DNA of 24,000 bases from Arthrobacter halodurans (lineage in GTDB: Bacteria > Actinomycetota > Actinomycetes > Actinomycetales > Micrococcaceae). Numbering within the stretch: the first letter of the stretch is position 1; each line of letters starts with the position of its first letter. The notes under the pieces were generated by a model that saw only the letters and a list, made by a program, of their open reading frames with translations, ran no database searches and had not been told where the DNA came from. The stretch covers positions 31,789-55,788 of the forward strand of contig NZ_JBHDLJ010000016.1 of NCBI RefSeq assembly GCF_041877255.1, given 5' to 3'. Positions 1,044 to 23,644 of the stretch are shown here, in pieces. The translations under genes were made by a program, and so were the position numbers.

Positions 1044-1317
1044 CCGGGGCCCCGCCCCCGCGGACGACGCCGAACCCCCGGAGCCCGAGGGCTTCGGCTT
1101 CCGAACCGGCGTGCGCAGCGCGCGCGTGGCGTTCGGCACCGCGGCGTTCCTGCTGGCCATGGCCACGGTCCTGCTGGTGCTCGGCGCCGTCCTGGCGGTG
1201 CAGGCCCGGGCGTGGTGGGGACTCGCCGCGCTGGCGCTGCTCGAGCTCTGCTTCGTCGGGGCGTTCGCGGCCCTCGCCGCGCGCGCCCGCGCCCGCCGCG
1301 GCCGCCGCGGCCGCTAG
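1033..1317 (+). CDS. hypothetical small membrane protein (two predicted TM helices, Arg-rich tail)
   Basis: The ATG at 1033 overlaps the ATPase stop by 11 nt. Third codon positions are almost all G/C, as expected for real coding in this genome. Two hydrophobic stretches are present (AAFLLAMATVLLVLGAVLAV and GLAALALLELCFVGAFAAL). I recognise no family. Confidence 0.4.
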   Translation: MPPNRGPAPADDAEPPEPEGFGFRTGVRSARVAFGTAAFLLAMATVLLVLGAVLAVQARAWWGLAALALLELCFVGAFAALAARARARRGRRGR

Positions 1318-1325
1318 GCGGGCCG

Positions 1326-2294
1326 CTACCGCTGGCGGGACTTGGGGTCCAGCGCCTCGCGCAGCGACTCGCCCAGGAGGGTGAAGCCCAGCGCGGTGAT
1401 GGCGATGCAGATGCCAGGCAGGAAGGCCAGCTGCGGCGCGATCCCCAGCTCGGCCTGCGCGTAGGTGAGCATGCGTCCCCACTCCGCGGTCTGCGGCAGG
1501 CCGCCGCCGAGTCCCAGGAAGGACAGCGCCGCGGCGTCGATGACGGCGGTGGCGAGGGTCAGCGTGGCCTGCACGATGACCGGTCCCACGGAGTTCGGCA
1601 GCAGGTGGCTCATGGTGATGGTCCGCCGGCTCAGCCCGAGGGTCTGCGCTGCCAGGATGTAGTCGGCGCCCTTCTGCTGCAGCATCGAGGAACGCAGCAG
1701 CCGGGCGAAGATCGGCACCGCCGAGACGCCGATGGCGATCATCACGGCGTAGGTCCCCTGCCCCAGCAGCGCGGCGATGGACACGGCCAGCAGCAGGTTC
1801 GGCACGGAGAGCAGGATGTCGACGAAGCGCATGATCACGTTGTCGACCCAGCCGCCGATACCGCCGGCCAGCAGTCCGAGCACCATGCCGCCGACGAGCC
1901 CCATGGCCGTGGACACGACGCCGATCGTGAGCGAGGCCTGGGCGCCCCAGATCAGCTTTGAGAGCACGTCGCCGCCGAAGCGGTCCAGCCCCAGCGGATA
2001 CTCGGGCAGCTCGCCCGGTCCGGGGATGTGGGTCGGGGTGATCTCCGTGCGCCCGGGGAGGTCGTCGCCGCCGTATGGGGCCAGGAACGGCGCCAGCACG
2101 GCCACGACGATGAACAGCAGGACGATCACGGCACCCGCGACGGCGGCGGGGTTGCGGCGCAGCCGCGTGAAGGCGTCGCGCCAGACGCTGGTGCCCTTGG
2201 CCGCGGGCCCGTCGGCGGGCGTGGGGACGGCGGGGCCGTCGCCCGCGGGGGTCAGGTCGGATCCGCCGGGGGCGGGGGGAAGAGTCATGCTCAT
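1326..2294 (-). CDS. ABC transporter permease, DppC/OppC-like (peptide/nickel family)
   Basis: The real start is MSMTLPP at the ATG 2294-2292, which forms an ATGA overlap with the stop of the upstream permease gene. The upstream 182 codons of the 504-aa track ORF are Arg/His/Pro junk. The protein has an N-terminal TM helix, then the BPD-transporter core (VDILLSVPNLLLAVSIAALLG ... AAQTLGLSRRTITMSHLLPNS). 322 aa. Confidence 0.9.
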   Translation of the reverse strand: MSMTLPPAPGGSDLTPAGDGPAVPTPADGPAAKGTSVWRDAFTRLRRNPAAVAGAVIVLLFIVVAVLAPFLAPYGGDDLPGRTEITPTHIPGPGELPEYPLGLDRFGGDVLSKLIWGAQASLTIGVVSTAMGLVGGMVLGLLAGGIGGWVDNVIMRFVDILLSVPNLLLAVSIAALLGQGTYAVMIAIGVSAVPIFARLLRSSMLQQKGADYILAAQTLGLSRRTITMSHLLPNSVGPVIVQATLTLATAVIDAAALSFLGLGGGLPQTAEWGRMLTYAQAELGIAPQLAFLPGICIAITALGFTLLGESLREALDPKSRQR

Positions 2295-3295
2295 TGCACA
2301 CGCACCCTCGGGTCGATGAAGCCGTAGGACACGTCCACCAGCAGGTTGATCAGCGAATAGAGGATCGCGATGAAGATGATGAAGCCCTGGAGGACGGGAT
2401 AGTCCAGCGTGAAGATGGCGTCCCGCAGGAACCTCCCGATGCCGTTGAAGGCGAACACCGTCTCGGTGAGCACCGCCCCGGAGATCAGCAGCCCCAGCTG
2501 CAGGCCGATCGTGGTGGTCACGGGCAGCATGGCGTTGCGCAGGATGAACCGGTTGCGGATGATCTTCTCGGTCAGCCCCTTGGCCCGCGCCGTGCGCACG
2601 TAGTCGGCGTTCATGACCTCCAACACGGAGGCGCGCGTGATGCGCACGATGATCGCCAACGGGATGGTGCCCAGCGCGATGCCGGGCAGGACGAGGTGCA
2701 TGAAGGCGTCCCACGCCGCGTCCCACTCGCGGGTGAGCAGCCCGTCGAGGACGTAGAAGTCCGTGATGTGGGTGGCGTCGATCCTCGCGCTCTGCCGGCC
2801 GTCGGTGGGGAACCACGGGAGCTGGATGGCGAAGAGCCACTTGAGGATGAACGCCAGGAAGAAGACCGGGACGACGATCCCGAGCAGCGAGAGCACCACC
2901 GAGGAGTGGTCCTGCCAGCGCCCGAGGTTCCGTGCCGCCCAGTAGCCCATCGGGATGCCGACGCCGATCGCGAAGACCAGGGCGATGACGGCGAGCTCGA
3001 CGGTGGCCGGGAAGCGCGTGCCGAACTCCTCCAGCACGGAGCGCCCCGTCTGCAGGCTGACGCCGAAGTCGCCGCTGAGGAGCTTGCCCATGTACTGGAA
3101 GTACTGCTCGACCAGCGGCCTGTCGAAGCCGTACGCGGCGTTGACCCGCGCCACCGCCTCGGGGGTGGCCTTGTCGCCGAGCAGGGCGGTCGCCGGACCG
3201 CCGGGGAGGTTGCGCACCCAGAGGAACAGCAGGATGGACAACCCGATGAGGGTGGGGATCAGCAGCGATATTCGCCGACCGATGACTCTGAGCAC
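2291..3295 (-). CDS. ABC transporter permease, DppB/OppB-like
   Basis: The 334-aa ORF starts MLRVIGRRISLLIPTLIGLSILLFLW, the typical DppB N-terminus. It carries the EAA-loop region ADYVRTARAKGLTEKIIRNRFILRNAMLP. Confidence 0.92.
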   Translation of the reverse strand: MLRVIGRRISLLIPTLIGLSILLFLWVRNLPGGPATALLGDKATPEAVARVNAAYGFDRPLVEQYFQYMGKLLSGDFGVSLQTGRSVLEEFGTRFPATVELAVIALVFAIGVGIPMGYWAARNLGRWQDHSSVVLSLLGIVVPVFFLAFILKWLFAIQLPWFPTDGRQSARIDATHITDFYVLDGLLTREWDAAWDAFMHLVLPGIALGTIPLAIIVRITRASVLEVMNADYVRTARAKGLTEKIIRNRFILRNAMLPVTTTIGLQLGLLISGAVLTETVFAFNGIGRFLRDAIFTLDYPVLQGFIIFIAILYSLINLLVDVSYGFIDPRVRVQ

Positions 3296-3324
3296 AGCGG
3301 CCTCTCGTCGGTGGTGGAAAGGGC

Positions 3325-3352
3325 GCGGCGGCGGGTCCCCACCCGCCGCCGC
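3325..3352 (-). terminator. intercistronic GC-rich stem-loop between the SBP and permease genes (attenuator or mRNA-stabilising hairpin)
   Basis: Perfect 12-bp inverted repeat gcggcggcgggt (3325-3336) / acccgccgccgc (3341-3352) with a 4-nt loop cccc. On the minus-strand transcript only a short UUU run follows, so this is at best a partial terminator. Confidence 0.5.
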
Positions 3353-3365
3353 ACCCCTCGGTTTC

Positions 3366-5057
3366 CTACTTGTTCAGCGTGATCTCGTTGAAGACCTCGT
3401 CGTTCACCGGGCTGGTCGGGTAGGAATCGACCCGCTCGTTGAACGCCAGGGACGGGGCCGGGTGGGCCAGCGGGATCGCCGGCACGAACTCGGCGATGTC
3501 CGCGTTGATCTCCTCGTACAGCGGGGTCTGCTCCTCGAGGACCGGGACGCCGCGGGCGTCGGCGATCTTCTTGAACAGCTCCGGGTTGTCGAAGCCGTAC
3601 TCGAGCTTCTCGCCGCCGAAGAAGACGCCGACGAAGTTGTCGGTGTCGTTGTAGTCGCCGGTCCAGCCGAGCAGGTGCAGTCCGTGGTCCTCGCTCCCCT
3701 GGATCCGGTCCAGGTAGTCCGGGCTCCACTTGTTCGGCTGCGGGTCGACCTTGATGCCGACCTCGGCGAGCTGGGCGGAGATGTTGGTGAAGATCTGCTC
3801 CGGCGTCGGCATGTAGGGGCGCGAGATGCCGGTCGGGTAGTTGAACTGGATCGTGAATCCGTCGGCGTAGCCGGCCTCGGCCAACAGCTCCTTGGCCTTC
3901 TCGGGGTCGTAGTCGTAGGTCGCGACGTCCGGGTTGTAGCCGTTGACCGAGTCCGGGATGAACTCGATGGCCTTCTTCGTGCCCTCGGGGAGGGTCTGCT
4001 TGATGAGCGCGTCCTTGTCGATCGCGTGGGAGATGGCCTGGCGGACCTTGACGTCCTGGAGCTCCTCCACGGCCTGGTTCAGGCCCAGGTACAGGATGGT
4101 GAACGGATCGCGGGCCATGATCTTGTAGCCGGCGTCGGTCAGTGCGGTGGTGTCCGCGGGCGCGACCAGGTCGTAGCCGTCGATCTCGCCGGCCTCGAGC
4201 GACTGGCGGCGGGCCACCGGGTCGTCGATCACGCGGAAGATGATCTTGTCGATCTGGCCCTTCTCGCCCCAGTAGTCCTCGTTGTAGGACAGCTCGACCT
4301 GCTGGCCGGTCTCCCACTTGTCGAACTTGAACGGTCCGGTGCCCACGGGGTTGCCGGTGGCGTACTCGGAGAGCACGGGGGCCTCGGCGGAGCCGCTGAT
4401 CTCGTCGGCCTTGAACTTCTCCAGCGCCTCGGGGGACTGCATCGCGAAGGCCGGCAGGGACAGCGCGGCGACGAAGCCGGCGAACGGCTTGGCCAGCTTG
4501 ATCTGGGCCTCCGTCGGAGACACGGCCTCGCAGGACTCGTAGACCGCGTTCTCCGGCGCGTCCGCGAAGCCCTTGAACAGGTTCCCGTAGTAGTAGGCCA
4601 CGGTCTCGGCCTGCTGGATGCCCTTGAAGTTGTACCAGCGGTCGAAGTTGAAGCAGACGGCCTCGGCGTTGAATTCCGTCCCGTCGTGGAACTTCACGCC
4701 CTCCTTGAGCTTGAAGTCGTAGGTCAGGCCGTCCTCGGAGTTCGTCCAGGACTCGGCCAGCAGCGGCGCGGGGTCCGCGGTGCCGGACTCGGTGCCCACG
4801 AGGCCCTCGAAGATCTGGCGGCTGACGCGGAACGACTCGCCGTCGGAGGCGTACGCGGGATCCAGGGACTTCGGGTCGGAGGACGCGGCGAAGATGAAGG
4901 TCGGGTTCACGTCGCCGTCCGCGCCCGCGCTGGCGCCGGCGTCGTCGCGCTGGCTCTCGGCGCAGCCGCTGAGGACCAGCGCGCCGATCGCGAACGCGGT
5001 GGTGATGGCCGCAAAGCGGCGGGGTGCCGTCCGCTTCGGCTTGCCATTGTGGGTCAT
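3366..5057 (-). CDS. ABC transporter substrate-binding lipoprotein, family 5 (peptide/nickel)
   Basis: I place the start at the ATG 5057-5055 (MTHNGKPKRTAPRRFAAITTAFAIGALVLSGCAES). It is preceded by AGGAGAA and gives a lipobox LSGC. The body is SBP_bac_5-like (FIFAASSDPKSLDPAY ... WTGDYNDTDNF). 563 aa. Confidence 0.9.
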   Translation of the reverse strand: MTHNGKPKRTAPRRFAAITTAFAIGALVLSGCAESQRDDAGASAGADGDVNPTFIFAASSDPKSLDPAYASDGESFRVSRQIFEGLVGTESGTADPAPLLAESWTNSEDGLTYDFKLKEGVKFHDGTEFNAEAVCFNFDRWYNFKGIQQAETVAYYYGNLFKGFADAPENAVYESCEAVSPTEAQIKLAKPFAGFVAALSLPAFAMQSPEALEKFKADEISGSAEAPVLSEYATGNPVGTGPFKFDKWETGQQVELSYNEDYWGEKGQIDKIIFRVIDDPVARRQSLEAGEIDGYDLVAPADTTALTDAGYKIMARDPFTILYLGLNQAVEELQDVKVRQAISHAIDKDALIKQTLPEGTKKAIEFIPDSVNGYNPDVATYDYDPEKAKELLAEAGYADGFTIQFNYPTGISRPYMPTPEQIFTNISAQLAEVGIKVDPQPNKWSPDYLDRIQGSEDHGLHLLGWTGDYNDTDNFVGVFFGGEKLEYGFDNPELFKKIADARGVPVLEEQTPLYEEINADIAEFVPAIPLAHPAPSLAFNERVDSYPTSPVNDEVFNEITLNK

Positions 5058-5236
5058 GGCTTCTCCTGTGGGTCGAGTGGTGGCACCGGCGGCCGTCTCA
5101 GTCGCCACGCTCCCGAGGACGGAAGGCTGGTGCATGTGTGAGCCTAGTCTCATGCAGCGTGTGTTTCACGCATCCACGGGCACGTCACACCCCGTTCGTG
5201 TCACGATTCGGTCACGGCCGCCCCTCCCGGCGGGCG

Positions 5237-13182: not shown

Positions 13183-13902
13183 CTACAGCAGGCCCCCGAC
13201 GACGTTCGCGATCCGTGGCGACGGGCTCACGCCGAACTCGGCCTTGAGCCGCTCGGAGAAGTCCTCGTACACGCGGATCATCTTGGCCTGGTCGCCCTCG
13301 GCCCGGTAGGTCTCGAGCAGGAGCCGGTGCGCGTTCTCCCGCCACGGGTCGATGTCGACGGCGCGGAGGGCGGCCTCCTTGGCCCGCTCGATCTCCCCCG
13401 CCGCGAGGCATTCCGCGGAGAGCCGTTCGAGGACGGTCAGCCGCATGCGTTCCCAGCGGTCCTGCTCCGCCAGCACCCAGTCCTCGTACCAGCCCGGCAA
13501 CAGTTCGGCGTCGCTCAGCAGCGCCAGCAGCTCGCCGCGTTCGCGGGATCCCCGGGAGACGTCCGCGGCATGGGCGCGACGGCGGATGTCGTCGGCGTCC
13601 ACCACGACGTCGGCGGACAGGGCCATCGGCTGCATCCCGCCGCCGGGGACCAGGCCGCCGGAAAGGAGCCCCGGCAGCTGGTGGTTGATGGTCCAAATGG
13701 TCTCCCGCAGGCTGCCCGTGGCCTGCTTCTCCGTGCTGTTGGGCCAGAGGAGCCCGGCCAGGAGGGCCCGCGGCTGTGGTCCCCGCAGCGCGAGGGCCGT
13801 GATCAGGCGCTGCTGCCGAAGTGTGACCTTGACGGGTTTGCGGCGGTGCAGCAGGCGCCACGTGCCGACGATCTCGACGTCCCAAGACTGTGTGTTCATC
13901 AT
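13183..13902 (-). CDS. SARP/AfsR-family transcriptional activator (OmpR-type winged helix plus BTAD domain)
   Basis: 239 aa. The N-terminus has the SARP DNA-binding pattern (VEIVGTWRLLHRRKPVKVTLRQQRLITALALRGPQPRALLAGLLWP...SLRETIWTINHQLP). The C-terminal BTAD part reads ELLPGWYEDWVLAEQDRWERMRL...IDPWRENAHRLLLETYRAEGDQAKMIRVYEDFSERLKAEFGVSPSP. Confidence 0.85.
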   Translation of the reverse strand: MMNTQSWDVEIVGTWRLLHRRKPVKVTLRQQRLITALALRGPQPRALLAGLLWPNSTEKQATGSLRETIWTINHQLPGLLSGGLVPGGGMQPMALSADVVVDADDIRRRAHAADVSRGSRERGELLALLSDAELLPGWYEDWVLAEQDRWERMRLTVLERLSAECLAAGEIERAKEAALRAVDIDPWRENAHRLLLETYRAEGDQAKMIRVYEDFSERLKAEFGVSPSPRIANVVGGLL

Positions 13903-14110: not shown

Positions 14111-14155
14111 GCAAGTGCATTGACAAGCATTAAACACGGGGACCAGGAGATAGCC

Positions 14156-15559
14156 ATGCCGTACATCGCCCACTCAAGCAGTTCCGGGCCTACGGCCCAC
14201 CCTCTCGGCGCTGCGGAGGGCACGCTTCCCCTGGGCCGGGCGAGCATCGTGGTGCAGAAGTTCGGCGGGTCGTCCGTCGCCGACGCGACGGCGATCCGGC
14301 GCGTCGCCCGGAGGGTGCTCCAGACCCACCAGTCCGGCCACCCGGTCGTCGTCGTCGTCTCCGCCATGGGCGACACCACCGACGAGCTGCTGGACCTGGC
14401 GGCGCGCGTGACCGACACGCCGAAGGCCCGCGAGCTCGACCTGCTGCTCTCCAGCGGCGAGCACGTCTCCGCTTCCCTGCTCGCCCTCGCGCTCGCGGAC
14501 CTGGGCGCGCGGGCGCGGACCTTCACGGGGGCCGACACGGGCCTGCTCACGGACGACACGCACGGCACGGCCCACGTGGTCTCCGTCGACCCGCGCCGCA
14601 TCCGGGCCGCGATCGAGCGCGGCGAGATCCCGATCGTCGCCGGATTCCAGGGGAGGTCCCGGAGGACACGCGAGGTCACCACGCTCGGCCGCGGGGGGTC
14701 CGACATCACGGCCATCGCCCTCGCCGCCGCCCTCAACGCCTCGGTGTGCGAGATCTTCACGGACGTCGACGGGGTGTTCACCGCGGATCCCCGCGTGGTC
14801 CCCACGGCCCGCAAGATCGACACGATCTCCAGCGAGGCGATGCTCGAGCTCGCGGCCTGCGGGGCCAAGATCCTGCACGTGCGCTGCGTCGAGTACGCGC
14901 GGCGCTTCGGGGTCACCCTCCACGTCCGCTCCTCGTTCACGCCGGGCGAGGGCACGGTGGTCCTTCCCGGCGCACCGGCGGTCCTGGTCGATCCGACGGG
15001 CAAGGCGCCCGAGGACGGGATCGTGTCCGCCATCGCCGTGGAGCGCTCGACGGCGAAGATCACCCTCGGCGGCGTCCCCGACGTCACCGCGGCCGCTGCC
15101 CTGCTGGCGGGCGTGGCCGCCCGGGCGAGGCTGCGGATCGACATGGTCGTCCAGCGACCCGCCGCCGGGGACGGGGACCACGCGAGCATCGCCTTCACCG
15201 TTCCCGCGGCGGACGGGCGGCACGTCATGGACGAGCTGGCCACGCGCCGGCCGGTCGCGCGCTTCCGGTCGCTGCACTACGACGACCGCGTGGGGATCCT
15301 GTCGCTCGTGGGCCACGGCATCCGCCACGACGCCGCACTCTCGTCCCGCTTCTTCCGCTCGCTCGCGGAGGCCGGTGTCAACATCGACGTAATTTCCGCA
15401 TGCGAGTCGCGCGTCAGCGTGATGGTCGATGAGGGTTCGCTGGACGTCGCCTGCGAGGCGCTGGCGCGGGCCTTCCCCGGCGGCCCGCCGAGGGACCGCC
15501 AGCCGGGACGCGCCCCGTCCCACGCGGCGGGCCGCATCCACGCGCCGGCGGCCGGTTAG
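14156..15559 (+). CDS. ask: aspartate kinase (cluster-situated paralog)
   Basis: ATG at 14156 after CCAGGAGA. Kinase core motifs are VVQKFGGSSV, VVVVSAMGDTTDELL, LLSSGEHVSASLLALAL, LGRGGSDITAIALAAAL, TDVDGVFTADPRVVP and AACGAKILHVRCVEYA. Two ACT-like regions follow. The protein also has a ~30-aa N-terminal and a ~30-aa C-terminal extension. 467 aa. Confidence 0.9.
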   Translation: MPYIAHSSSSGPTAHPLGAAEGTLPLGRASIVVQKFGGSSVADATAIRRVARRVLQTHQSGHPVVVVVSAMGDTTDELLDLAARVTDTPKARELDLLLSSGEHVSASLLALALADLGARARTFTGADTGLLTDDTHGTAHVVSVDPRRIRAAIERGEIPIVAGFQGRSRRTREVTTLGRGGSDITAIALAAALNASVCEIFTDVDGVFTADPRVVPTARKIDTISSEAMLELAACGAKILHVRCVEYARRFGVTLHVRSSFTPGEGTVVLPGAPAVLVDPTGKAPEDGIVSAIAVERSTAKITLGGVPDVTAAAALLAGVAARARLRIDMVVQRPAAGDGDHASIAFTVPAADGRHVMDELATRRPVARFRSLHYDDRVGILSLVGHGIRHDAALSSRFFRSLAEAGVNIDVISACESRVSVMVDEGSLDVACEALARAFPGGPPRDRQPGRAPSHAAGRIHAPAAG

Positions 15560-15718: not shown

Positions 15719-17110
15719 ATGACCGCACAACCCGAAGTCGCCACCCTGGCCGGCCTCACGGCCCCGGACGTCTCGGGCCCCGTGCCCGGGCCGAAGTCCG
15801 CGCAGATGCTCGCGCGGCAGGCGGCGCGCGAATCGAACGCGCGCAGCTACCCGCGGCGCCTGCCCATCGCCATCGACGAGGCGCACGGGAGCTTCGTGCG
15901 CGACGTCGACGGCAACGTCTTCATCGACTTCCTTGCCGGTGCCGGCGTGCTGTCCCTCGGGCACAACCATCCCGAACTCGTGGCCGTCGCCACGGAACAG
16001 CTCGGCAGGCTCACCCACGGGTTGGACTTCCCCACGCCGGCAAAGGAGGCGTTCACCGACGCCCAACTGTCGATGCTGCCCGCGGCCATGCGCGAACGCA
16101 CGAAGATCCACTTCTGCGGCCCGACCGGCGCCAACGCCGTCGACGCCGCGGTCAAGCTCTGCAAGACGGCCACCGGACGGGGCGACATCGTGGCGTTCCG
16201 GGGTGGCTTCCACGGGGCCAGCGCCGTCGGCATGGCCCTCACCGGGCTGGTCGAGCAGAAGGCCCCGGTCCCCAACGGCGTTCCCGGCGTGCACTTCTTC
16301 CCGTTCCCGTATGCCGCCCGCCCCCCGTTCGGCGGGACCCCGGAGGATTGCGGCCGGCTTTGCGCCGACTACTTCGAAAACGCGCTGCGGGACGACCATG
16401 GCGGGGTGGCCCTGCCCGCCGCGGTGATCCTTGAACTGGTCCAGGGCGAAGGCGGCGTCATCCCCGCCCCCGTGGAATTCGTCCAGCGCGTCAGGGCCGT
16501 GACCCGGGAGCTGGGGATTCCGCTGATCGTCGACGAGGTGCAGACCGGCTGCGGGCGCACCGGCACCTGGTTCGCGTTCGAGCAGTACGGGATCGAACCG
16601 GACGTCATCGTGGCCTCCAAGGCCCTCAGCGGCCTCGGAACACCGGTCGCGCTGATCATGTACGACAAGTCGTTGGACGTCTGGGCCCCCGGCGCGCACA
16701 CCGGAACGTTCCGCGGCAACCAGCTGGCCTTCGCCGCGGGCGCCGAGGCCGTGCGGATCTTCCGGCGCGACCGCGTGCTGGAGAACGTGCGGGAACAGGG
16801 CGAGCGCATCGGCGGGCTCTTCGGCGCCCTCCGCGACCTGCCGTGGGTCCTCGAGGTGCGCGGCCGGGGCATGATGTGGGGCATCGAACTGGTCGACCCG
16901 CTCGACGGGCAGCCCGACGGCGCGCTGGCCCGCGCGGTCCAGGACCGCCTGTTGCAGGAGGGCCTCATCCTGGAGACCGGTGGCCGCGGCGGCGGCGTGG
17001 TGCGCCTCCTGCCGCCCCTGAACTCCAGCTCCGAGGTGGTCGAGACGGCCTGCCGGCTGATCATCGACGCCGTGACGGAGCTCGGGGCGGAGCGGGCGGT
17101 CGCGCCATGA
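15719..17110 (+). CDS. ectB: diaminobutyrate--2-oxoglutarate transaminase (EctB/Dat/PvdH family, class III PLP aminotransferase)
   Basis: ATG after AAGGAGG. 463 aa. The protein is collinear with EctB along its length: SNARSYPRRLPIAI, IDFLAGAGVLSLGHNHP, HGLDFPTPAK, GPTGANAVDAAVKL, LVQGEGGV, DEVQTGCGRTG, the PLP-lysine region ASKALSG and HTGTFRGNQLAF. Confidence 0.88.
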   Translation: MTAQPEVATLAGLTAPDVSGPVPGPKSAQMLARQAARESNARSYPRRLPIAIDEAHGSFVRDVDGNVFIDFLAGAGVLSLGHNHPELVAVATEQLGRLTHGLDFPTPAKEAFTDAQLSMLPAAMRERTKIHFCGPTGANAVDAAVKLCKTATGRGDIVAFRGGFHGASAVGMALTGLVEQKAPVPNGVPGVHFFPFPYAARPPFGGTPEDCGRLCADYFENALRDDHGGVALPAAVILELVQGEGGVIPAPVEFVQRVRAVTRELGIPLIVDEVQTGCGRTGTWFAFEQYGIEPDVIVASKALSGLGTPVALIMYDKSLDVWAPGAHTGTFRGNQLAFAAGAEAVRIFRRDRVLENVREQGERIGGLFGALRDLPWVLEVRGRGMMWGIELVDPLDGQPDGALARAVQDRLLQEGLILETGGRGGGVVRLLPPLNSSSEVVETACRLIIDAVTELGAERAVAP

Positions 17111-20100
17111 CGATGCTCGCCGGTGGCCCCGGGGACCAGCTCCAGGGGACCGTCCTGGGGGCCCCGGAGGCCGACGACGCGATCCGGTGGAGGCCGGGGC
17201 AACGTCTGGACACACTCTTCGAGGAGCGGTGCGACGCCCTGGCGGCCGCGGGGAGGTCCGCGCAGCTCGCCGTCGACTCCCCGGACGCCACCCTCACGTA
17301 CGGCGAGCTGGACGCGGCGGCCAACCGGCTGGCCCGCTACCTCGCGGCGCAAGGCGCGGGTCCCGGCACGAGGGTCGCGCTGCTCTTCGACCAGCCCGTC
17401 CGCTCCTACGTGGCGCTCCTGGCCGTGCTGAAGACGGGCGCGGCCTACGTCCCGCTCGACGCGGGCTTCCCGGAGGACCGGCTCGCCTACATCGTCGGGG
17501 ACGCGGGCGTCAGCCTGGTGCTGACACTGTCCCACCTCCGTGCGAAGCTGCCGCGGATCGCCGCGCGGACGCTGTGCCTGGACGAGGAGGACCCGGCGGT
17601 CGCCCGCCAGGATCCCTCCCGGCCGGCGCGGGAGGCCGTCGGTGCGACCGCCGGCGAGCTCGCCTACATCATCTACACCTCCGGGTCCACGGGACGCCCC
17701 AAGGGGGTCGCCGTGGACCACCCGAGCATCTGCAACTTCGTGCTCGTGGCCGCGGAAACCTACGGCTACGAACCCGGGGACCGCGTCTACCAAGGCATGA
17801 CGATCGCGTTCGACTTCTCGGTCGAGGAGATCTGGGTGCCGTGGATGGTGGGGGCCACGCTGGTGCCCAAGCCCGGGGGCTCCGCGCTCCTGGGCATGGA
17901 CTTGAGCGACTACCTGCAGGAGCGCCGCATCACCGCCATGTGCTGCGTCCCGACGCTGCTGGCCACCCTGGACGAGGACCTCCCCGGGCTGCGCTTCCTG
18001 CTGGTCTCCGGCGAAGCCTGCCCGAAGGACCTGGTCACGCGCTGGCACCGGCCGGGGCGCCGCTTCCTGAACGTCTACGGCCCCACCGAGGCCACGGTGA
18101 CCGCGACGTGGGACGTGGTCCATCCGGACAAGCCCGTCACGCTCGGCGTGCCGCTGCCGACGTACTCCGCCGTGATCCTGGACCCCGAGGAGGCGCGAGC
18201 GCTGCCCGCGGGCGAGCTCGGGGAGATCGGCATCGCCGGGATCGGCCTCGCCCGGGGCTACGTCAACCGCGACGATCTCACCGAGCGGGCGTTCATCCCC
18301 GACTTCCTCGGGATCGAGAACAACCCGTCGGGGAGGATCTACCGCACCGGCGACCTGGGGCGGTTCACGCCCGAGGGCACCATCGAGTACCTCGGCCGGA
18401 TCGACACGCAGGTGAAGATCCGCGGCTACCGGATCGAGCTGTCGGAGATCGAGTCGGTGCTCCTCGAGCACCCCGCGATCGCCCTCGCCGTCGTGGACAC
18501 CCACAGCCCGGCGCCCGGCGTCGTCGAGCTCGCCGCCTACTACACCCTGCGCGGGGACGCCGCGGGGCTGGACGAGGCCGAGCTGGACCGCGCGCTCCGC
18601 GAGCGACTGCCCGCGTACATGGTGCCCGCCTACCTCGACCGGCTCGACACCATCCCCCTGATGCCCAGCGGCAAGGCGGACCGGAAGAACCTTCCGGCCC
18701 CGACCGCCCGGCGCGCGGGCGGCAACGCGGCCGCGTACGTGCCCCCGGAGACGGATGCCGAACGCGCGCTGGCCGAGCAGCTGGGCGCCGTCCTGGGCCT
18801 AGAGCGGCCCTCGGTCGACGCGCACTTCTTCGACGACCTCGGGGCCAACTCGCTGCTGATGGCCCACTTCTGCGCCGGGATCCGCAGGCACACGGATCTT
18901 CCCTCGGCGGCCATGCAGGACGTGTACCAGCAGCCCACGCTCCGGCGCCTCGCGGCGATGCTGGAGGCCGAGCGGATGGCCGCCGAGCTCGCGTCCGCGG
19001 GCGCGGAACCGGCCGCGCCTCCCGCCCCCCGGCCGGCCCCGAGCTCGCTCAAATACACGCTCACGGGCGCGGCGCAGCTGCTGTTCTTCCTCGGCTACAC
19101 CACCTACGCGGCGCTCCTGCTGGTCTTCTCCTTCACGTGGGTCTCCGCGGCCCCGACGCTGTTCGAGCTCTGGCTGCGCAGCATCGCGTTCGGCGCCGGC
19201 ATGTTCGTGGTCCTGACGATCACGCCCGTGCTGTTCAAGTGGGCCCTTGTGGGGCGCATGAAGCAACAGGTGATCCCACTCTGGGGGCTGGGCTACCTGA
19301 GGTTCTGGATCGTCCGGCTGGTGACCCGGGCCAGCCCCATGGCCGCGTTCGTCGGATCCCCGCTCTATGTCGTCTACCTCCGAATGCTCGGCGCCAGGAT
19401 CGGCAAGGGCGTCTCCATCTTCTCCCGCATCGTGCCCGCCTGCCCCGACCTCATCAGCATCGGCGAGGGCACCGTCATCCACAAGAACGCCGTTATGCTC
19501 GGCTACCGCGTCCGCCGCGGCGTGATCGAGACGGGCCCGGTCACGATCGGCAACAACGTCCTGGTGTCCCAGAAGACGGTCTTCGACATCGGCACCGCCA
19601 TGGGCGACGACTCGCAACTGGGCCACGCGTCCGCGCTGCACGAGGGGCAGTCGGTGCCCGCCGGCGAGGTCTGGCACGGATCGCCCGCCGTCCCCGCGGC
19701 CACGAGCTACGCGCGGATCCGGCCCCGGCGCTGCGGGACCCGCCGCCGCGTGGTCTTCAGCGCCTTCCAGCTCTTCAACCGGCTGGTGCTGGTCGTGCCC
19801 GGCGGCCTAATCCTGCTGGCCGGGCTGCTGCCGGGCTACCTTGAGACGGGGCACCTCGAACCCACGAACCCGCTGTTCTACCTCGACGCGGCGCTCCTGT
19901 CGCTGGCGCTCTTCATCGGCGGCATGGTCAGCGGCCTAGTCGCCGTGCTCACGGTCCCGCGGCTGCTCAACCTCGCGACGCCGGCCGAGACCACCTTCCC
20001 GCTCTACGGGATCCGCTACGCGCTCCACCGCATGGTCCTGGCGCTGACAAACATCAAGCCGTACCTGACACTCTTCGGGGACAGCTCGTACATCGTCCAC

Positions 20101-21192
20101 TACCTCAAGGCGTTGGGGTGGGACCTCGGCAAGAAGATCGACCAAACGGGGTCCAACTTCGGTCCCGGCGTGGCCCACGACTCCCCGTACCTCAGCAAGG
20201 TCGGCTACGGCACCATGGTCTCCGACGGCCTGAACATGATGAACGCGGAGTACACGAGCACGTCGTTCCGGCTCTCGGTCGTGGAGATCGGCGACCGCAA
20301 CTTCCTGGGCAACGACATCACCTGGCCCATCGCGTCCCGGGTCGGCGAGAACTGCCTCCTGGGCACCAAGGTCCTCGTGCCCATCGACGGGCCGGTCCGC
20401 CGCGACGTCGGGCTCCTCGGCTCGCCGGCGTTCGAGATCCCCCGCTCCGTCCAGCGTGACAGCCAGTTCGACGACCTGAAGCTGGAGGACGCCAAGAGCC
20501 GGCTGCTCCCGGCCAAGAACCGGCACAACATCGGTTCCATGGCCCTGTATCTGGCCCTGCGCTGGTTCCAGCTCTTCTCGGCGACCGTCATCGGCGCGCT
20601 CTCCGTCGCGCTCTACGACGTGCTGGGCGTGCTCGCCGTCGGCGCCGGGACGCTCATCTTCCTGGTCTATGGCATCCTCCTGTCCGCCTTCGCGGAGCGG
20701 GCGGTGCTGGGGTTCGGGCGGCTCGAGCCGCGGTTCTGCTCCATCTACGACCCCTACTTCTGGCACCACGAGCGCCTGTGGAAGCTGCTCGGCGGGGCGC
20801 CGTTCACGGGGACCCCCTTCCGGCCCATGGTGTGGCGCCTCTTCGGCGTGAAGGTCGGCAAGCGCCTCTACGACGGCGGAGGCGGCCTGGTGGAAAAGAC
20901 CCTGGTCTCGATCGGCGACGACTGCGAGCTGAACGAGGCGTCCATCCTGCAGGGGCACTCCCTGGAGGACGGAACCTTCAAGTCGGGCCACATCACGCTC
21001 GGGAACGGCTGCACGATCGGGGTCGCCGCCTTCATCCACTACGGGGTGAACCTGCAGGACGGCGCGGAAGTGGCGGCTGACTCGTTCCTGATGAAGGGCG
21101 AGGACCTGCCGGTGGACAGCCTCTTCGGCGGCAACCCGGCCCGCGAGCTGGATCCGGCCCGGCAGCTGCGGCGCGTGGCGGCGACCGCCTAG
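17107..21192 (+). CDS. Pls-like single-module NRPS (homopoly(amino acid) synthetase architecture): A domain, PCP, then three repeats of two TM helices plus a hexapeptide-repeat domain
   Basis: The ATG at 17107 overlaps the transaminase stop as ATGA. 1361 aa. A-domain cores are YGELDAAANRLA, LAYIIYTSGSTGRPKGV, FDFSVEE, NVYGPTE, GELGIAGIGLARGY, YRTGDL, GRIDTQVKIRGYRIEL and PSGKADRK. The PCP carries DDLGANSL. The region downstream has six hydrophobic helices in three pairs, alternating with three left-handed-beta-helix/acetyltransferase-like domains. Confidence 0.9.
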   Translation: MTMLAGGPGDQLQGTVLGAPEADDAIRWRPGQRLDTLFEERCDALAAAGRSAQLAVDSPDATLTYGELDAAANRLARYLAAQGAGPGTRVALLFDQPVRSYVALLAVLKTGAAYVPLDAGFPEDRLAYIVGDAGVSLVLTLSHLRAKLPRIAARTLCLDEEDPAVARQDPSRPAREAVGATAGELAYIIYTSGSTGRPKGVAVDHPSICNFVLVAAETYGYEPGDRVYQGMTIAFDFSVEEIWVPWMVGATLVPKPGGSALLGMDLSDYLQERRITAMCCVPTLLATLDEDLPGLRFLLVSGEACPKDLVTRWHRPGRRFLNVYGPTEATVTATWDVVHPDKPVTLGVPLPTYSAVILDPEEARALPAGELGEIGIAGIGLARGYVNRDDLTERAFIPDFLGIENNPSGRIYRTGDLGRFTPEGTIEYLGRIDTQVKIRGYRIELSEIESVLLEHPAIALAVVDTHSPAPGVVELAAYYTLRGDAAGLDEAELDRALRERLPAYMVPAYLDRLDTIPLMPSGKADRKNLPAPTARRAGGNAAAYVPPETDAERALAEQLGAVLGLERPSVDAHFFDDLGANSLLMAHFCAGIRRHTDLPSAAMQDVYQQPTLRRLAAMLEAERMAAELASAGAEPAAPPAPRPAPSSLKYTLTGAAQLLFFLGYTTYAALLLVFSFTWVSAAPTLFELWLRSIAFGAGMFVVLTITPVLFKWALVGRMKQQVIPLWGLGYLRFWIVRLVTRASPMAAFVGSPLYVVYLRMLGARIGKGVSIFSRIVPACPDLISIGEGTVIHKNAVMLGYRVRRGVIETGPVTIGNNVLVSQKTVFDIGTAMGDDSQLGHASALHEGQSVPAGEVWHGSPAVPAATSYARIRPRRCGTRRRVVFSAFQLFNRLVLVVPGGLILLAGLLPGYLETGHLEPTNPLFYLDAALLSLALFIGGMVSGLVAVLTVPRLLNLATPAETTFPLYGIRYALHRMVLALTNIKPYLTLFGDSSYIVHYLKALGWDLGKKIDQTGSNFGPGVAHDSPYLSKVGYGTMVSDGLNMMNAEYTSTSFRLSVVEIGDRNFLGNDITWPIASRVGENCLLGTKVLVPIDGPVRRDVGLLGSPAFEIPRSVQRDSQFDDLKLEDAKSRLLPAKNRHNIGSMALYLALRWFQLFSATVIGALSVALYDVLGVLAVGAGTLIFLVYGILLSAFAERAVLGFGRLEPRFCSIYDPYFWHHERLWKLLGGAPFTGTPFRPMVWRLFGVKVGKRLYDGGGGLVEKTLVSIGDDCELNEASILQGHSLEDGTFKSGHITLGNGCTIGVAAFIHYGVNLQDGAEVAADSFLMKGEDLPVDSLFGGNPARELDPARQLRRVAATA
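17209..18700 (+). other. adenylation (A) domain of the synthetase
   Basis: Core motifs A1-A10 were read directly from the translation. The A10 lysine lies in PSGKADRK (nt 18664-18687). Boundaries are approximate. Confidence 0.85.
18736..18966 (+). other. peptidyl carrier (T/PCP) domain of the synthetase
   Basis: ETDAERALAEQLGAVLGLERPSVDAHFFDDLGANSLLMAHF. The predicted phosphopantetheine-attachment Ser codon is tcg at 18850-18852 (residue 582). Confidence 0.8.
19045..21189 (+). other. membrane-embedded C-terminal polymerisation region (TM1-2, C1, TM3-4, C2, TM5-6, C3)
   Basis: TM pairs lie at about 19060-19260, 19750-19970 and 20527-20715. Hexapeptide-repeat domains lie at about 19381-19690 (LGARIGKGVSIF...VWHGSPA), 20101-20445 (LGWDLGKKIDQTG...LLGSPAFEIPR) and 20833-21150 (FGVKVGKRLY...LFGGNPAREL). 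No HHxxxDG condensation motif and no GxSxG thioesterase domain were seen. Confidence 0.75.
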
Positions 21193-22271
21193 TCGTCCGT
21201 CCCGGCCTCGCCCAAGGCAAGTGTCGCGTGCATGAGGGCGTCCGCCATCGTCTCCAGGACCTCCGGGTCGACGTTGCCCAACGTGTCGCAACTGCGGTGG
21301 TAGCAGGAGTCGTACTTGTCGCCGGGCGTACCGCCGAACGCCGCGGCCTCGGGGTCGGACTTGGACCCCTCGTCCCCCGTGAAGAGGCCGCCGGACGGGA
21401 TGTCCCGGTCCAGGAAGGCCTGGTAGTCGGACCCGCCGTCGAACTCCGTGGGTCCCGCCAGGACGCCCGCGGCGGAGAAGTGGTCCAGGAACACCCGCTC
21501 GATCTCCCCGGAGCCGTTCGGGAGGCGGCCGCCATAGTCCGACCCGTCGCCGTCGTAGACCAGGACGACGCCGTTCGGCGAGCCCACCATGTCCAGGTTC
21601 AGGTACGCCAGGTGCTGTTCGGCCTGCTCGTCGGAGAGCCCGTCGACATAGTGCTCCGAGCCGTACAGGCCGTCCTCCTCGCCACCCCAGAAGGCGAAGC
21701 GGATCCTGTTGGGCGGGACCGTGCCCGATGCGGCCAGCCGCACGGCCACCTCCAGCACCGCCGCGACCCCGCTGCCGTTGTCGTTGATGCCCGGGCCCCG
21801 CGCCACCGAGTCCAAGTGCGCCCCGAGGACGACCGTGCGGGAGGCGTCGCCGGCCGTGTCGGCGACGATGTTGAACGTCTCGATGTCCCTGTCGCGCCGG
21901 CCCTCGTGGCTGAATCCCTGGCGCACCGGGTCGTAGCCGGCGCCGCGCAGGCGGTCCTCCACGTACGCCGCCGAGGCCTCGTAGCCTCCGGTGCCCGACG
22001 CCCGGTTCCCGCCGTTGGCGTCGGCCGCCTCCTGCAGGGCCTCGAGATGCGCGCGCAGCCCCGCTTCGCCCACGCCGGCCCGCAGCTCCGCGCTGTCCGG
22101 GGCCGTGCCGATCTCGATCCCGGGCCGGGACGAGCACCCGGTCAGCACGAGTGACGCCGTCGCGGCGGCGGCGAGCCAGGGGGCGGCGGCGTGCCAGGGG
22201 GCGGCGGCGTGCCAGGGGGCGGCGGGGGCGCGGCGGCGTGTCGACCGTCGGTGGGTGGGGCGGCGTGTCAT
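21189..22271 (-). CDS. M28-family zinc aminopeptidase, predicted lipoprotein
   Basis: 360 aa, starting at an ATG. The signal peptide has a lipobox LVLTGCSS. M28 metal-ligand blocks are present (VVLGAHLDSV, GINDNGSGVAAVLE, FAFWGGEEDGLYGSEHY, LNLDMVGSPN), as is the C-terminal CYHRSCD. Its stop shares the tetranucleotide CTAG with the synthetase stop. Confidence 0.88.
   Translation of the reverse strand: MTRRPTHRRSTRRRAPAAPWHAAAPWHAAAPWLAAAATASLVLTGCSSRPGIEIGTAPDSAELRAGVGEAGLRAHLEALQEAADANGGNRASGTGGYEASAAYVEDRLRGAGYDPVRQGFSHEGRRDRDIETFNIVADTAGDASRTVVLGAHLDSVARGPGINDNGSGVAAVLEVAVRLAASGTVPPNRIRFAFWGGEEDGLYGSEHYVDGLSDEQAEQHLAYLNLDMVGSPNGVVLVYDGDGSDYGGRLPNGSGEIERVFLDHFSAAGVLAGPTEFDGGSDYQAFLDRDIPSGGLFTGDEGSKSDPEAAAFGGTPGDKYDSCYHRSCDTLGNVDPEVLETMADALMHATLALGEAGTDD
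22176..22225. repeat. 18-bp tandem repeat (2 perfect units plus a partial third) inside the peptidase signal-peptide coding region
   Basis: ccagggggcggcggcgtg occurs at 22176-22193 and again at 22194-22211, and 14 nt of a third copy follow from 22212. On the minus strand it encodes AAPWHA-AAPWHA-AAPWLA. Confidence 0.85.
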
Positions 22272-22497: not shown

Positions 22498-22971
22498 ATG
22501 ATCGACGCGCTGCAGGACTTCACCTCGTCGCTGGCCCCCGTGTTGCAGTGGGCGGGGGTGATGCTGGTGGCCGCGATCCCGTTCGTCGAGTCCTACTTCG
22601 GTTCGGTGATCGGCGTGCTCGCCGGAATGAACCCCGCGATAGCGATCGTCGCGGCCATCGTGGGCAACGTGGCCTCGATGCTGGTCTTCGTGCAGAGCGC
22701 GCACGGCGTGCGGTCCAAGGTGGTTGGCGGCAAGGAGCCCCGCGAACCCTCCGCCCGTCGGCAGAAGCTGCGCGCGCAGTTCGACAAGTACGGGGTTGCC
22801 GGCGTGAGCCTCCTGGGCCAGACCATCCTGCCCAGCCAGATCACCTCGGCCGCGATGGTCTCTTTCGGGGCGTCGAAAAACTCCGTGATCCTGTGGCAGT
22901 GCATTTCCATCGTGATCTGGGGCGTTGCCTTCGGCGTCCTCGCCGTCCTCGGCGTCTCGCTCGTCGGCTGA
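22498..22971 (+). CDS. small membrane protein, putative small multidrug export family (Sm_multidrug_ex-like)
   Basis: ATG at 22498 after GAGAGGA. Only the last 157 codons of the 326-aa track ORF look real. There are four hydrophobic segments. AAIPFVESYFGSVIGVLAGMNPAIAIVAAIVGNVASMLVF resembles the family signature. Confidence 0.6.
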   Translation: MIDALQDFTSSLAPVLQWAGVMLVAAIPFVESYFGSVIGVLAGMNPAIAIVAAIVGNVASMLVFVQSAHGVRSKVVGGKEPREPSARRQKLRAQFDKYGVAGVSLLGQTILPSQITSAAMVSFGASKNSVILWQCISIVIWGVAFGVLAVLGVSLVG

Positions 22972-23071
22972 TCGGCCGACCGCGCCGCGGGCGCGCGGAC
23001 TTGCTAGGGTCGAGACCGTAGTCCCCGCCCGGCACCAGCCGACGGGCGGTCCCACCAGCGGAAGGGCGAGC

Positions 23072-23644
23072 ATGGACGCGGTCGCCGATCTCAGCGATCC
23101 GGCACTGGTCGCCCGGGCCCAATCGGGCGATCTCGACGCCTTCGAGGAACTCGTGCGCAGGTACCAGCGCGGGATCCTGCGGTTCTGCCGCGGCATGTTG
23201 GGCAACGGGCCGGACGCGGAGGACGCCGTCCAGGACGTCCTGCTCACCGCGTGGCGACGGTTACCGACCCTACGCGCGACGGAGGCGGCCTCCACCTGGC
23301 TCTACCGGATCGCCTCCCACCGCTGCATCGACGCCCTCAGGAAGCGGCGGCCCGACGGCGGCGACCCCGCCGAGCGCGAGGCGTCGCAGACCGGCAGCGA
23401 GGCCAGCCGACGCCTCCCCGCGGGGCCCGAGGGCGCGGCGGAAACACGGCTGGCCCTCGACGCGTTGCGCGGGCATCTCGCCGCACTGCCCGACACCCAG
23501 CGCGAAGCCTGGACCCTGCGCGAGGTCCAGGGAATGAGCTATCAGGACATCGCGCGGATCACCGGAGAACCACTAGCCACCGTGCGCGGGCGCATCGCCC
23601 GCGCACGCACGGCCCTGGCCGAAAGGATGGACTCGTGGAAATGA
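23072..23644 (+). CDS. ECF-type RNA polymerase sigma-70 family factor
   Basis: ATG at 23072. 190 aa. Region 2 reads FEELVRRYQRGILRFCRGMLGNGPDAEDAVQDVLLTAWRRL...WLYRIASHRCIDALR. Region 4 reads LPDTQREAWTLREVQGMSYQDIARITGEPLATVRGRIARAR. Confidence 0.9.
   Translation: MDAVADLSDPALVARAQSGDLDAFEELVRRYQRGILRFCRGMLGNGPDAEDAVQDVLLTAWRRLPTLRATEAASTWLYRIASHRCIDALRKRRPDGGDPAEREASQTGSEASRRLPAGPEGAAETRLALDALRGHLAALPDTQREAWTLREVQGMSYQDIARITGEPLATVRGRIARARTALAERMDSWK

Follow-up and report, generated by a model that had tools for sequence, protein, structure and literature searches.

The 24-kb stretch of Arthrobacter halodurans DNA analyzed here (24,000 nucleotides of contig NZ_JBHDLJ010000016.1, hereafter called the window; G+C content approximately 72%) carries a gene for a large synthetase of the Pls/PosA family of non-ribosomal peptide synthetases (NRPSs). 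The gene is preceded on the same strand by those of an aspartate kinase (ask) and a diaminobutyrate-2-oxoglutarate transaminase (dat), in the order ask-dat-synthetase, and it is followed by a convergent gene for an M28 metallopeptidase, the stop codons of the two overlapping at positions 21189-21192. The features of the locus are listed in Table 1. The longest open reading frame (ORF) spanning the synthetase interval extends from 16843 to 21192 on the forward strand, and the start of the synthetase was placed at the ATG codon at 17107, using an analysis of the G+C content at third codon positions (GC3) together with the sequence itself. At this position the stop codon of the transaminase gene and the start codon of the synthetase gene overlap by four nucleotides (ATGA). 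The GTG codon at 16843, which would give a protein of 1449 amino acids (aa), was rejected because of the 268-nt overlap that it would create with the transaminase gene, and because the database entry [quoted passage not shown], which matches the predicted protein from end to end with 100% identity, begins at 17107. The ORF is intact, its GC3 is typical of coding DNA, and the catalytic motifs, the carrier serine and the lysine of motif A10 are all present.

Table 1. Features of the synthetase locus. Positions are those of the window; A, adenylation domain; T, carrier (thiolation, peptidyl carrier protein) domain; TM, transmembrane helix; LbH, left-handed beta-helix domain; AF2, AlphaFold2 (H, helix in the numbering of the AF2 model); Dab, diaminobutyrate.
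Feature	Position	Strand	Description	Evidence
Pls/PosA-family synthetase gene	17107..21192	+	1361 aa, A-T-[2TM-LbH]x3; predicted poly-Dab synthetase	ORF and translation
Adenylation domain	17248..18675	+	Core aa 48-385 (AMP-binding, 1.4e-79), C-terminal subdomain aa 447-523 (AMP-binding_C)	Pfam; TIGR01733 (adenylation), 424 bits, cut-off 317
Carrier domain	18766..18963	+	PP-binding aa 554-619 (6.4e-8); phosphopantetheine-attachment Ser582 at 18850-18852 in LGANSL	Pfam; motif position
Membrane helix pair 1	19045..19248	+	TM1 aa 647-680, TM2 aa 685-714	Hydropathy; AF2 H8-41, H46-75
C1 left-handed beta-helix domain	19381..19689	+	aa 759-861	AF2; PDB sequence matches; Foldseek
Membrane helix pair 2	19738..19971	+	TM3 aa 878-913, TM4 aa 922-955	Hydropathy; AF2 H239-274, H283-316
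C2 beta-helix domain	20101..20445	+	aa 999-1113; most diverged repeat	AF2; hhalign
Membrane helix pair 3	20485..20706	+	TM5 aa 1127-1168, TM6 aa 1175-1200	Single hydrophobic stretch 1156-1203, split into two by AF2
C3 left-handed beta-helix domain	20833..21150	+	aa 1243-1348	AF2; maltose and galactoside O-acetyltransferase matches
Diaminobutyrate-2-oxoglutarate transaminase (dat, PddC-like)	15719..17110	+	Aminotran_3	Pfam; TIGR00709 "dat", 445.9 bits, cut-off 401.6
Pathway-linked aspartate kinase (ask, PddD-like)	14120..15559	+	AA_kinase and ACT	Pfam; NF005155, 440 bits, cut-off 346
M28 metallopeptidase	21189..22271	-	Peptidase_M28; lipoprotein signal (lipobox LTGC)	Pfam, 1.2e-45
BTAD-domain protein	13183..13902	-	Divergent from ask	Pfam BTAD, 2.5e-17
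Extracytoplasmic function (ECF) sigma factor	22925..23644	+	Beyond the peptidase	

The amino-terminal part of the synthetase consists of an A domain and a T domain, the carrier motif of which reads LGANSL or LGADSL among the relatives. Neither a condensation (C) nor a thioesterase (TE) domain was found in the synthetase by Pfam, and a regular-expression scan of the protein gave neither HHxxxDG nor GxSxG. The possibility that the gene represents a fragment of a canonical NRPS was ruled out, as the ORF is complete and contains no C or TE domain. The carboxy-terminal part matches the NCBIfam model TIGR02353 ("Pls/PosA family non-ribosomal peptide synthetase" terminal domain) with 636.8 bits against a cut-off of 423.1, residues 654-1345 corresponding to positions 3-695 of the 695 positions of the model. 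The family, whose founder is the epsilon-poly-L-lysine synthetase, is defined by the lack of C and TE domains and by six membrane helices around three tandem acetyltransferase-related domains (PMC10522769, PMC8117764, PMC4668381). Since TIGR02353 is matched above its cut-off, A and T domains are present, and C and TE domains are absent, the synthetase is a member of the known Pls/PosA family and not a new design.

Matches of the synthetase to the hexapeptide-repeat models of Pfam were below threshold. Hydropathy peaks were observed at residues 658-676, 692-710, 893-911 and 930-948, together with a double-length stretch at residues 1156-1203. An AF2 model of residues 640-1361, built on a 50-sequence alignment (predicted local distance difference test, pLDDT, 87.8; predicted template-modelling score, pTM, 0.88), contains six long helices that form three pairs, and within each unit the order is helix pair, short strand, two or three helices, and beta-helix. 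According to the hydropathy profile and the AF2 model, the module is predicted to have six membrane helices. The three repeat units are mutually homologous in profile-profile comparisons with hhalign (units 1 and 3, 99.2%, E = 7e-20; units 1 and 2, 94%, E = 1e-7; units 2 and 3, 73%, E = 3e-5). Many columns of the module are invariant across the 50 sequences, which points to purifying selection.

The best Foldseek matches of the module in the PDB are LbH acetyltransferases and gamma-carbonic anhydrases, the top folds being maltose O-acetyltransferase (3HJJ, E = 2.7e-5), streptogramin acetyltransferase (1MR7) and type-B chloramphenicol acetyltransferase. A search of the PDB sequences found the same families weakly, with C1 matching gamma-carbonic-anhydrase-like proteins and hexapeptide transferases at E = 2e-4. 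Neither by sequence nor by fold did the PDB copy searched yield a solved structure of a polymerase module. Each C domain shares the fold of the LbH (hexapeptide-repeat) acyltransferases (Foldseek E = 3e-5 to 1e-3, target template-modelling score approximately 0.45-0.55), and the trimer-like packing is another common trait. Unlike the acyltransferases, the synthetase has three diverged copies on one chain with membrane helix pairs between them, and its acyl donor is predicted to be a carrier-bound aminoacyl thioester instead of acyl-coenzyme A; the sequence identity to its domains is only 16-24%.

Much of this architecture had been read by eye in an earlier note on the same DNA. The motif scan and Pfam bore out its statement that HHxxxDG and a thioesterase are lacking, and the carrier serine codon that it gave (18850-18852, in LGANSL) is exact. 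Its three hydrophobic helix pairs alternating with three beta-helix domains were recovered by hydropathy and AF2, and the limits that it proposed for these domains (19381-19690, 20101-20445 and 20833-21150) match those of the blocks in the model. The note had staked its interpretation on six helices, on the fit of the C-terminal part to the Pls/PosA terminal model and on a code of basic type, and all three were found.

The specificity code was extracted from a MAFFT alignment of the synthetase to GrsA, whose sequence was confirmed against PDB entry 1AMU. It reads DFECLSVVTK, which corresponds to residues D236, F237, E240, C279, L299, S301, V323, V331, T332 and K523 of the synthetase, and the pocket aligns gaplessly to the A domains of PosA (8G95-8G98) and Pls (7WEW). 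In the 1AMU, PosA and Pls alignments D236 occupies code position 1 (GrsA 235) and E240 occupies position 3 (GrsA 239), that is, the family-type Asp and Glu are present. These two residues are conserved across the characterised cationic homo-poly(amino acid) synthetases, and in the crystal structures of PosA the Glu of position 3 contacts the side-chain amine of the substrate (PMC10522769). Given the conserved Glu and the gapless pocket alignment, the acidic residue at position 239 is a hallmark of the family and no peculiarity of this enzyme. Position 2 has been proposed to set the length of the accepted chain, with Ala for Lys, Met for Orn, and Phe for Dab or diaminopropionate (Dap) (PMC10522769). 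The characterised codes are compared in Table 2.

Table 2. Specificity codes of characterised synthetases (PMC10522769, Supplementary Table 2) and their match to DFECLSVVTK.
Enzyme	Code	Substrate	Match
PldA, Streptomyces celluloflavus	DFECLSAVTK	L-Dab	9/10
PddA, Streptoalloteichus hindustanus	DFECLSCVSK	D-Dab	8/10
S. albulus PD-1 enzyme	DFEYVGTVTK	L-Dap	6/10
Pls, Streptomyces albulus	DAESIGTVVK	Lys	
PosA, Acinetobacter baumannii	DMEHNGTVSK	Orn	
Streptoalloteichus hindustanus enzyme	DGESVSVVNK	beta-Lys	

As shown in Table 2, the lone difference from the L-Dab code of PldA is Val for Ala at position 322 (GrsA numbering). In the same numbering, the synthetase has Ser at 237 and Thr at 331, as in the L-type enzymes, where PddA has His and Ser, and the Cys322 of PddA is replaced by Val. 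The identity over the pocket region is 60% to PldA, 58% to the Dap enzyme (whose sequence was obtained by optical character recognition, OCR), and approximately 45% and 44% to Pls and PosA, respectively.

The distribution of the code was analyzed in the synthetase and its 120 best database matches (121 sequences, the matches being 55-66% identical), all of which fall in the clade of the synthetase itself. They come mostly from Arthrobacter and related Actinomycetota, the genera including Arthrobacter, Pseudarthrobacter, Planctomonas, Zafaria, Streptomyces, Phytohabitans and Kibdelosporangium. DFECLSVVTK is present in 116 of the 121 sequences, namely the query and 115 of the matches; DFECLSVVSK was observed three times and DFECLSTVTK once, and one sequence has an alignment gap at position 331. 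The Pls/PosA family as a whole is large, a full HMMER search with the C-terminal module against 1.84 billion cluster representatives (50% identity) retrieving 714 clusters at E<=1e-30.

Loci of the PldA/PddA type were collected by scanning GTDB genomes with the peptide pattern EEIWPAW[IV]AGATL[IV]AGP. The scan yielded 30 loci, analyzed as fixed 8-kb blocks, in which PldA is covered for approximately 340 aa, PddA lacks its C-terminus and pddB falls outside. The loci include those of S. celluloflavus NRRL B-2493 and S. hindustanus DSM 44523, and the published codes of both were recovered by the pipeline. DFECLSAVTK was found in 23 of the 30 loci, S. celluloflavus included (its Lys517 position is off the block). 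One member of the PldA clade, in Kitasatospora sp. GP82 (L011, 1486-5700, forward strand), carries DFECLSVVTK and has a dat gene after it, so that Ala and Val at position 322 interchange inside the clade to which both characterised Dab enzymes, PldA and PddA, belong.

The neighbouring ask and dat genes indicate the substrate independently of the code. The dat product is 66-70% identical to the transaminases beside PldA-type synthetases of Streptomyces, Embleya and Kitasatospora (tblastn), and the aspartate kinase is 46-57% identical to the kinases of PldA-type clusters. The poly-Dab cluster of S. celluloflavus is pldA-dat-ask (PMC8117764), and the S. hindustanus pdd cluster contains pddA, pddC (dat) and pddD (ask) (PMC8225329). 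The 4-nt overlap between dat and the synthetase gene suggests that the synthetase and the Dab supply genes share one transcript. Pfam scans were performed on every ORF of the window with coding GC3, by which the coding space was assigned to families except at approximately 22.3-22.9 kb; in these scans we found no DapF/PddB-like (DAP_epimerase) Dab racemase and no cysteine-synthase or ornithine-cyclodeaminase homologues of the kind that make Dap (PMC4668381), nor was a phosphopantetheinyl transferase found in the window.

Because the code matches the L-Dab code at nine of ten positions and dat and ask genes are adjacent, Dab is the predicted substrate, and by analogy with the characterised relatives we consider the gene to encode a gamma-poly-L-Dab synthetase of the Pls/PosA family with a probability of about 0.7. 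The L configuration is favoured by the lack of a racemase in the window and by the residues at 237, 322 and 331, which differ from the His, Cys and Ser of PddA; the gamma linkage and the iterative mode of synthesis are likewise predicted from the relatives.

In the proposed mechanism, the aspartate kinase of the cluster and the housekeeping aspartate-semialdehyde dehydrogenase would provide aspartate semialdehyde, from which the co-translated transaminase would form L-Dab. In the A domain, Asp236 would bind the alpha-amine of Dab and Glu240 its gamma-amine, while Phe237 would shorten the pocket for the short side chain. From the resulting Dab-AMP, Dab would be transferred to the phosphopantetheine of Ser582 and held there in thioester linkage. 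The membrane module, in which six helices and three beta-helix domains are predicted to pack as a pseudo-trimer, may then let the gamma-amine of free Dab, or of the free growing chain, attack this thioester. Repeated attack would release gamma-linked poly-Dab of mixed lengths without any thioesterase. Outside the cell, the polymer may be shortened or broken down by the lipoprotein peptidase of the M28 family.

The code given by the earlier note, aligned by hand, is identical to that obtained with MAFFT, and the suggestion that Glu239 suits a cationic side chain was correct, this Glu being conserved in the characterised family and binding the side-chain amine. The textbook Lys, Orn and Dab codes that it found not to match have their acidic residue at another position; they come from modules of multi-modular NRPSs, which are the wrong reference, the Pls family being the appropriate one. 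The statement that substrate choice cannot be read off was not supported, as the 9/10 match and the dat and ask neighbours indicate Dab. Nor was a distinct pocket solution supported, since Val322 also occurs within the PldA clade and the Asp/Glu/Phe pattern is that of the Dab/Dap enzymes. The earlier interpretation was, in sum, partly supported.

The closest characterised system is PldA of S. celluloflavus (BCD58482.1; Yamanaka et al. 2020, cited in PMC8117764 and PMC10522769), which shares with the A. halodurans enzyme the A-T-[2TM-LbH]x3 layout, the accessory dat and ask genes with no racemase, and nine of the ten code residues. It differs in belonging to a separate clade, in having Ala and not Val at 322, in its gene order (synthetase-dat-ask versus ask-dat-synthetase) and in its host (Streptomyces versus Micrococcaceae), and the linked M28 lipoprotein peptidase is a feature of the present locus. 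PddA of S. hindustanus (WP_083959783.1), which makes gamma-poly-D-Dab, has the same architecture, a cluster with dat (PddC) and ask (PddD), and eight code residues in common with our synthetase; it differs in its coupling to the racemase PddB and in His237, Cys322 and Ser331, and the two proteins are 42% identical over aa 60-861. Pls of S. albulus (A domain, 7WEW) shares the domain plan without C and TE, the six membrane helices, the three tandem domains and the Asp and Glu at positions 1 and 3, whereas it has Ala at position 2, which leaves space for Lys, and its neighbour is the PldII peptidase instead of dat and ask. Reportedly, it was Yamanaka et al. in 2008 who described Pls as the epsilon-poly-L-lysine synthetase of Streptomyces albulus. 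PosA, the delta-poly-L-ornithine synthetase of A. baumannii (PMC10522769; 8G95-8G98), belongs to the same family and gives its name to the NCBIfam model; its published AF2 model has the same module of three beta-helices and six helices, and its own Glu at the place of Glu240 binds the amine of the substrate side chain. It differs in Met at position 2 and in being encoded by a single-gene operon in a proteobacterium.

Several observations weigh against the assignment as a gamma-poly-L-Dab synthetase. For the clade as for the single enzyme, Dab is assigned by sequence comparison and analogy, and Val322, in place of the Ala of PldA, may bear on the choice of substrate. The A-T part is only 42-51% identical to that of the PldA/PddA clade, and the C-terminal part only 27-40%. 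In neighbour-joining trees of the A domain and of the 160-aa pocket region (in the second tree, the Pls, PosA, beta-Lys and Dap references were read by OCR and contain errors), the clade of the synthetase, the PldA/PddA clade and the Dap enzyme part in a three-way split whose branching order is not resolved, and phylogeny alone therefore does not fix the substrate; Dab- and Dap-type groups have been reported to be hard to tell apart by sequence (PMC10522769). As the synthetase lies outside the PldA clade in these trees, it appears to be a functional analogue or a member of a paralogous clade and not a PldA orthologue. The gene linkage among close relatives, by contrast, speaks in part for Dab: at six loci of its clade, the window included, a transaminase adjoins the synthetase in four and a kinase in three, and in one relative (P0104) an aspartate kinase is fused to the synthetase. 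The order is M28 peptidase-aminotransferase-aspartate kinase-synthetase-MMPL transporter in Arthrobacter sp. PM3 (L001), aminotransferase-kinase-synthetase in Kibdelosporangium aridum and aminotransferase-synthetase in Streptomyces sp. 8N706, whereas, against the assignment, the synthetase stands alone in Zafaria and Ornithinimicrobium, with neither dat nor ask adjacent. The class-III aminotransferase of Arthrobacter sp. PM3 (L001 5160-6431) is only 38% identical to the transaminase of the window, which suggests that there was more than one recruitment of a transaminase, or an exchange between clusters. Finally, a racemase could be encoded beyond the 24-kb window.

Such a racemase would be needed if the product were gamma-poly-D-Dab, made as by PddA with D-Dab from elsewhere in the genome. 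This would agree with the set of synthetase, dat and ask genes, which equals that of the pdd cluster, and with the 8/10 match to the PddA code, but it is very unlikely, considering that the translation of pddB and its homologues is coupled to that of pddA (PMC8225329), that Pfam found no DapF/PddB-like ORF in the window, and that the His237, Cys322 and Ser331 specific to PddA are absent. The smallest chance is left to beta-poly-L-diaminopropionate, made as by the S. albulus PD-1 enzyme. Against the common D-F-E (positions 1-3) and V-T-K (positions 8-10), the similar pocket identity (58%, with the OCR sequence, versus 60% to PldA) and the three-way split of the clades stand the CLSV at positions 4-7 where the Dap enzyme has YVGT (6/10 overall), the absence of Dap pathway genes (PMC4668381) from the window, and the Dab pathway to which the adjoining genes belong.

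It is also conceivable, although quite unlikely, that the pocket of the Val322 clade accepts another or a new cationic monomer (Orn, Lys, beta-Lys, Arg, hydroxylated or methylated Dab, or a mixture) and gives an undescribed polymer. The clade is separate and uncharacterised, two of its members lack dat and ask neighbours, and in the literature searched we found no experimentally established substrate for DFECLSVVTK, the one assignment being an automatic tool call of "Val" for A-domain amplicons with DFECLSVVT- in a 2018 endophyte survey (PMC7256872). On the other side, the code agrees with the L-Dab code at nine of ten positions, the Val variant also occurs in the PldA clade beside dat, Phe at position 2 is proposed to limit the chain to Dab or Dap (PMC10522769), and the Dab supply genes are probably co-transcribed with the synthetase, judging from the 4-nt overlap. 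More broadly, it is unlikely that the DFECLSVVTK clade, which is widespread in Arthrobacter and further Actinomycetota, makes a polymer differing from plain gamma-poly-L-Dab in monomer, stereochemistry, linkage or chain-length regime. Finally, the gene might be silent or inactive, or its product might be a short oligomer or a transfer of Dab to another acceptor instead of a free homopolymer. The polymer of Corynebacterium variabile was obtained only after the gene was moved to a Streptomyces host, and homologues are often unexpressed in the laboratory (PMC8117764); moreover, the window lacks a phosphopantetheinyl transferase, which some relatives have fused or adjacent. We regard this as highly improbable in view of the intact ORF with typical coding GC3, the presence of the catalytic motifs, the carrier serine and the A10 lysine, and the purifying selection suggested by the invariant C-terminal columns.

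Cationic isopeptide polymers are antimicrobial, epsilon-polylysine being a commercial food preservative, and antifungal and antiviral activities of poly-Dab have been reported. With the locus, the product of a large and uncharacterised synthetase clade can be predicted from sequence (Dab), which is useful because automatic predictors mis-assign DFECLSVVTK, as in the "Val" call mentioned above. Even if the product is poly-Dab, it would be the first polymer of the cationic isopeptide type to be assigned to this large clade of soil Arthrobacter, and, if so, it could contribute to the antifungal or antiviral activity of the bacteria of the clade. The prediction does not change what is known of the working of Pls/PosA enzymes and adds no new principle. 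A 2026 preprint describes a Pls/PosA-family synthetase of Arthrobacter equi, the product of which was left undecided.

As regards the remaining neighbours, the M28 lipoprotein is a plausible candidate for a polymer-trimming or self-protection peptidase, by analogy with Pld/PldII for polylysine; its counterpart in Arthrobacter sp. PM3 (L001 3672-4703) is 55% identical. The true start of the aspartate kinase may lie at approximately 14240, because the family models match only from aa 42. The BTAD-domain protein and the ECF sigma factor are possible regulators of the cluster, judging from their position.

Among the relatives of the synthetase, several departures from the basic domain order were observed. 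In P0104 (1832 aa), an aspartate kinase (AA_kinase and ACT) is fused to the synthetase C-terminus, while P0071, P0073, P0076 and P0077 (approximately 1600-1680 aa) carry a C-terminal phosphopantetheinyl transferase (ACPS) domain. P0074 and P0075 (1739 and 1828 aa) have an additional N-terminal adenylation domain, which is apparently degenerate. In P0243, P0246, P0249, P0277 and P0314 (1362-2309 aa) the Pls-type terminal module lies near the N-terminus, e.g. at residues 103-829 of 1412, with hundreds of residues after it, which suggests either other domain orders or gene-calling artefacts.

With regard to the pocket, PddA (L017) reads FDFH, with His at GrsA 237, where L-type enzymes read FDFS or FDFA. 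The same His is found in a homologue from a Chloroflexia metagenome-assembled genome (MAG; L020), with the code DFEGLSCVTK, and His at GrsA 237 is possibly an extra marker of D-Dab selectivity. Homologues from MAGs of Candidatus Dormiibacterota (L023, L029), a candidate phylum with no cultured producers, have DFECLGTVTK, a code intermediate between those for Dab (CLS) and Dap (..GT).

Farther from the synthetase, positions 3-5153 of the window encode an Opp/Dpp-type peptide ABC transporter, with the ATPase on the forward strand and two permeases and a family-5 solute-binding protein on the reverse strand. Beyond them follow genes for an ABC1 kinase, a partial AzlC, an AI-2E transporter, a DUF2254 protein, an AlaX-like tRNA_SAD protein, a GDPD protein and a DUF445 protein. 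Both the transporter set and these outlying genes look like housekeeping functions unconnected with the cluster.

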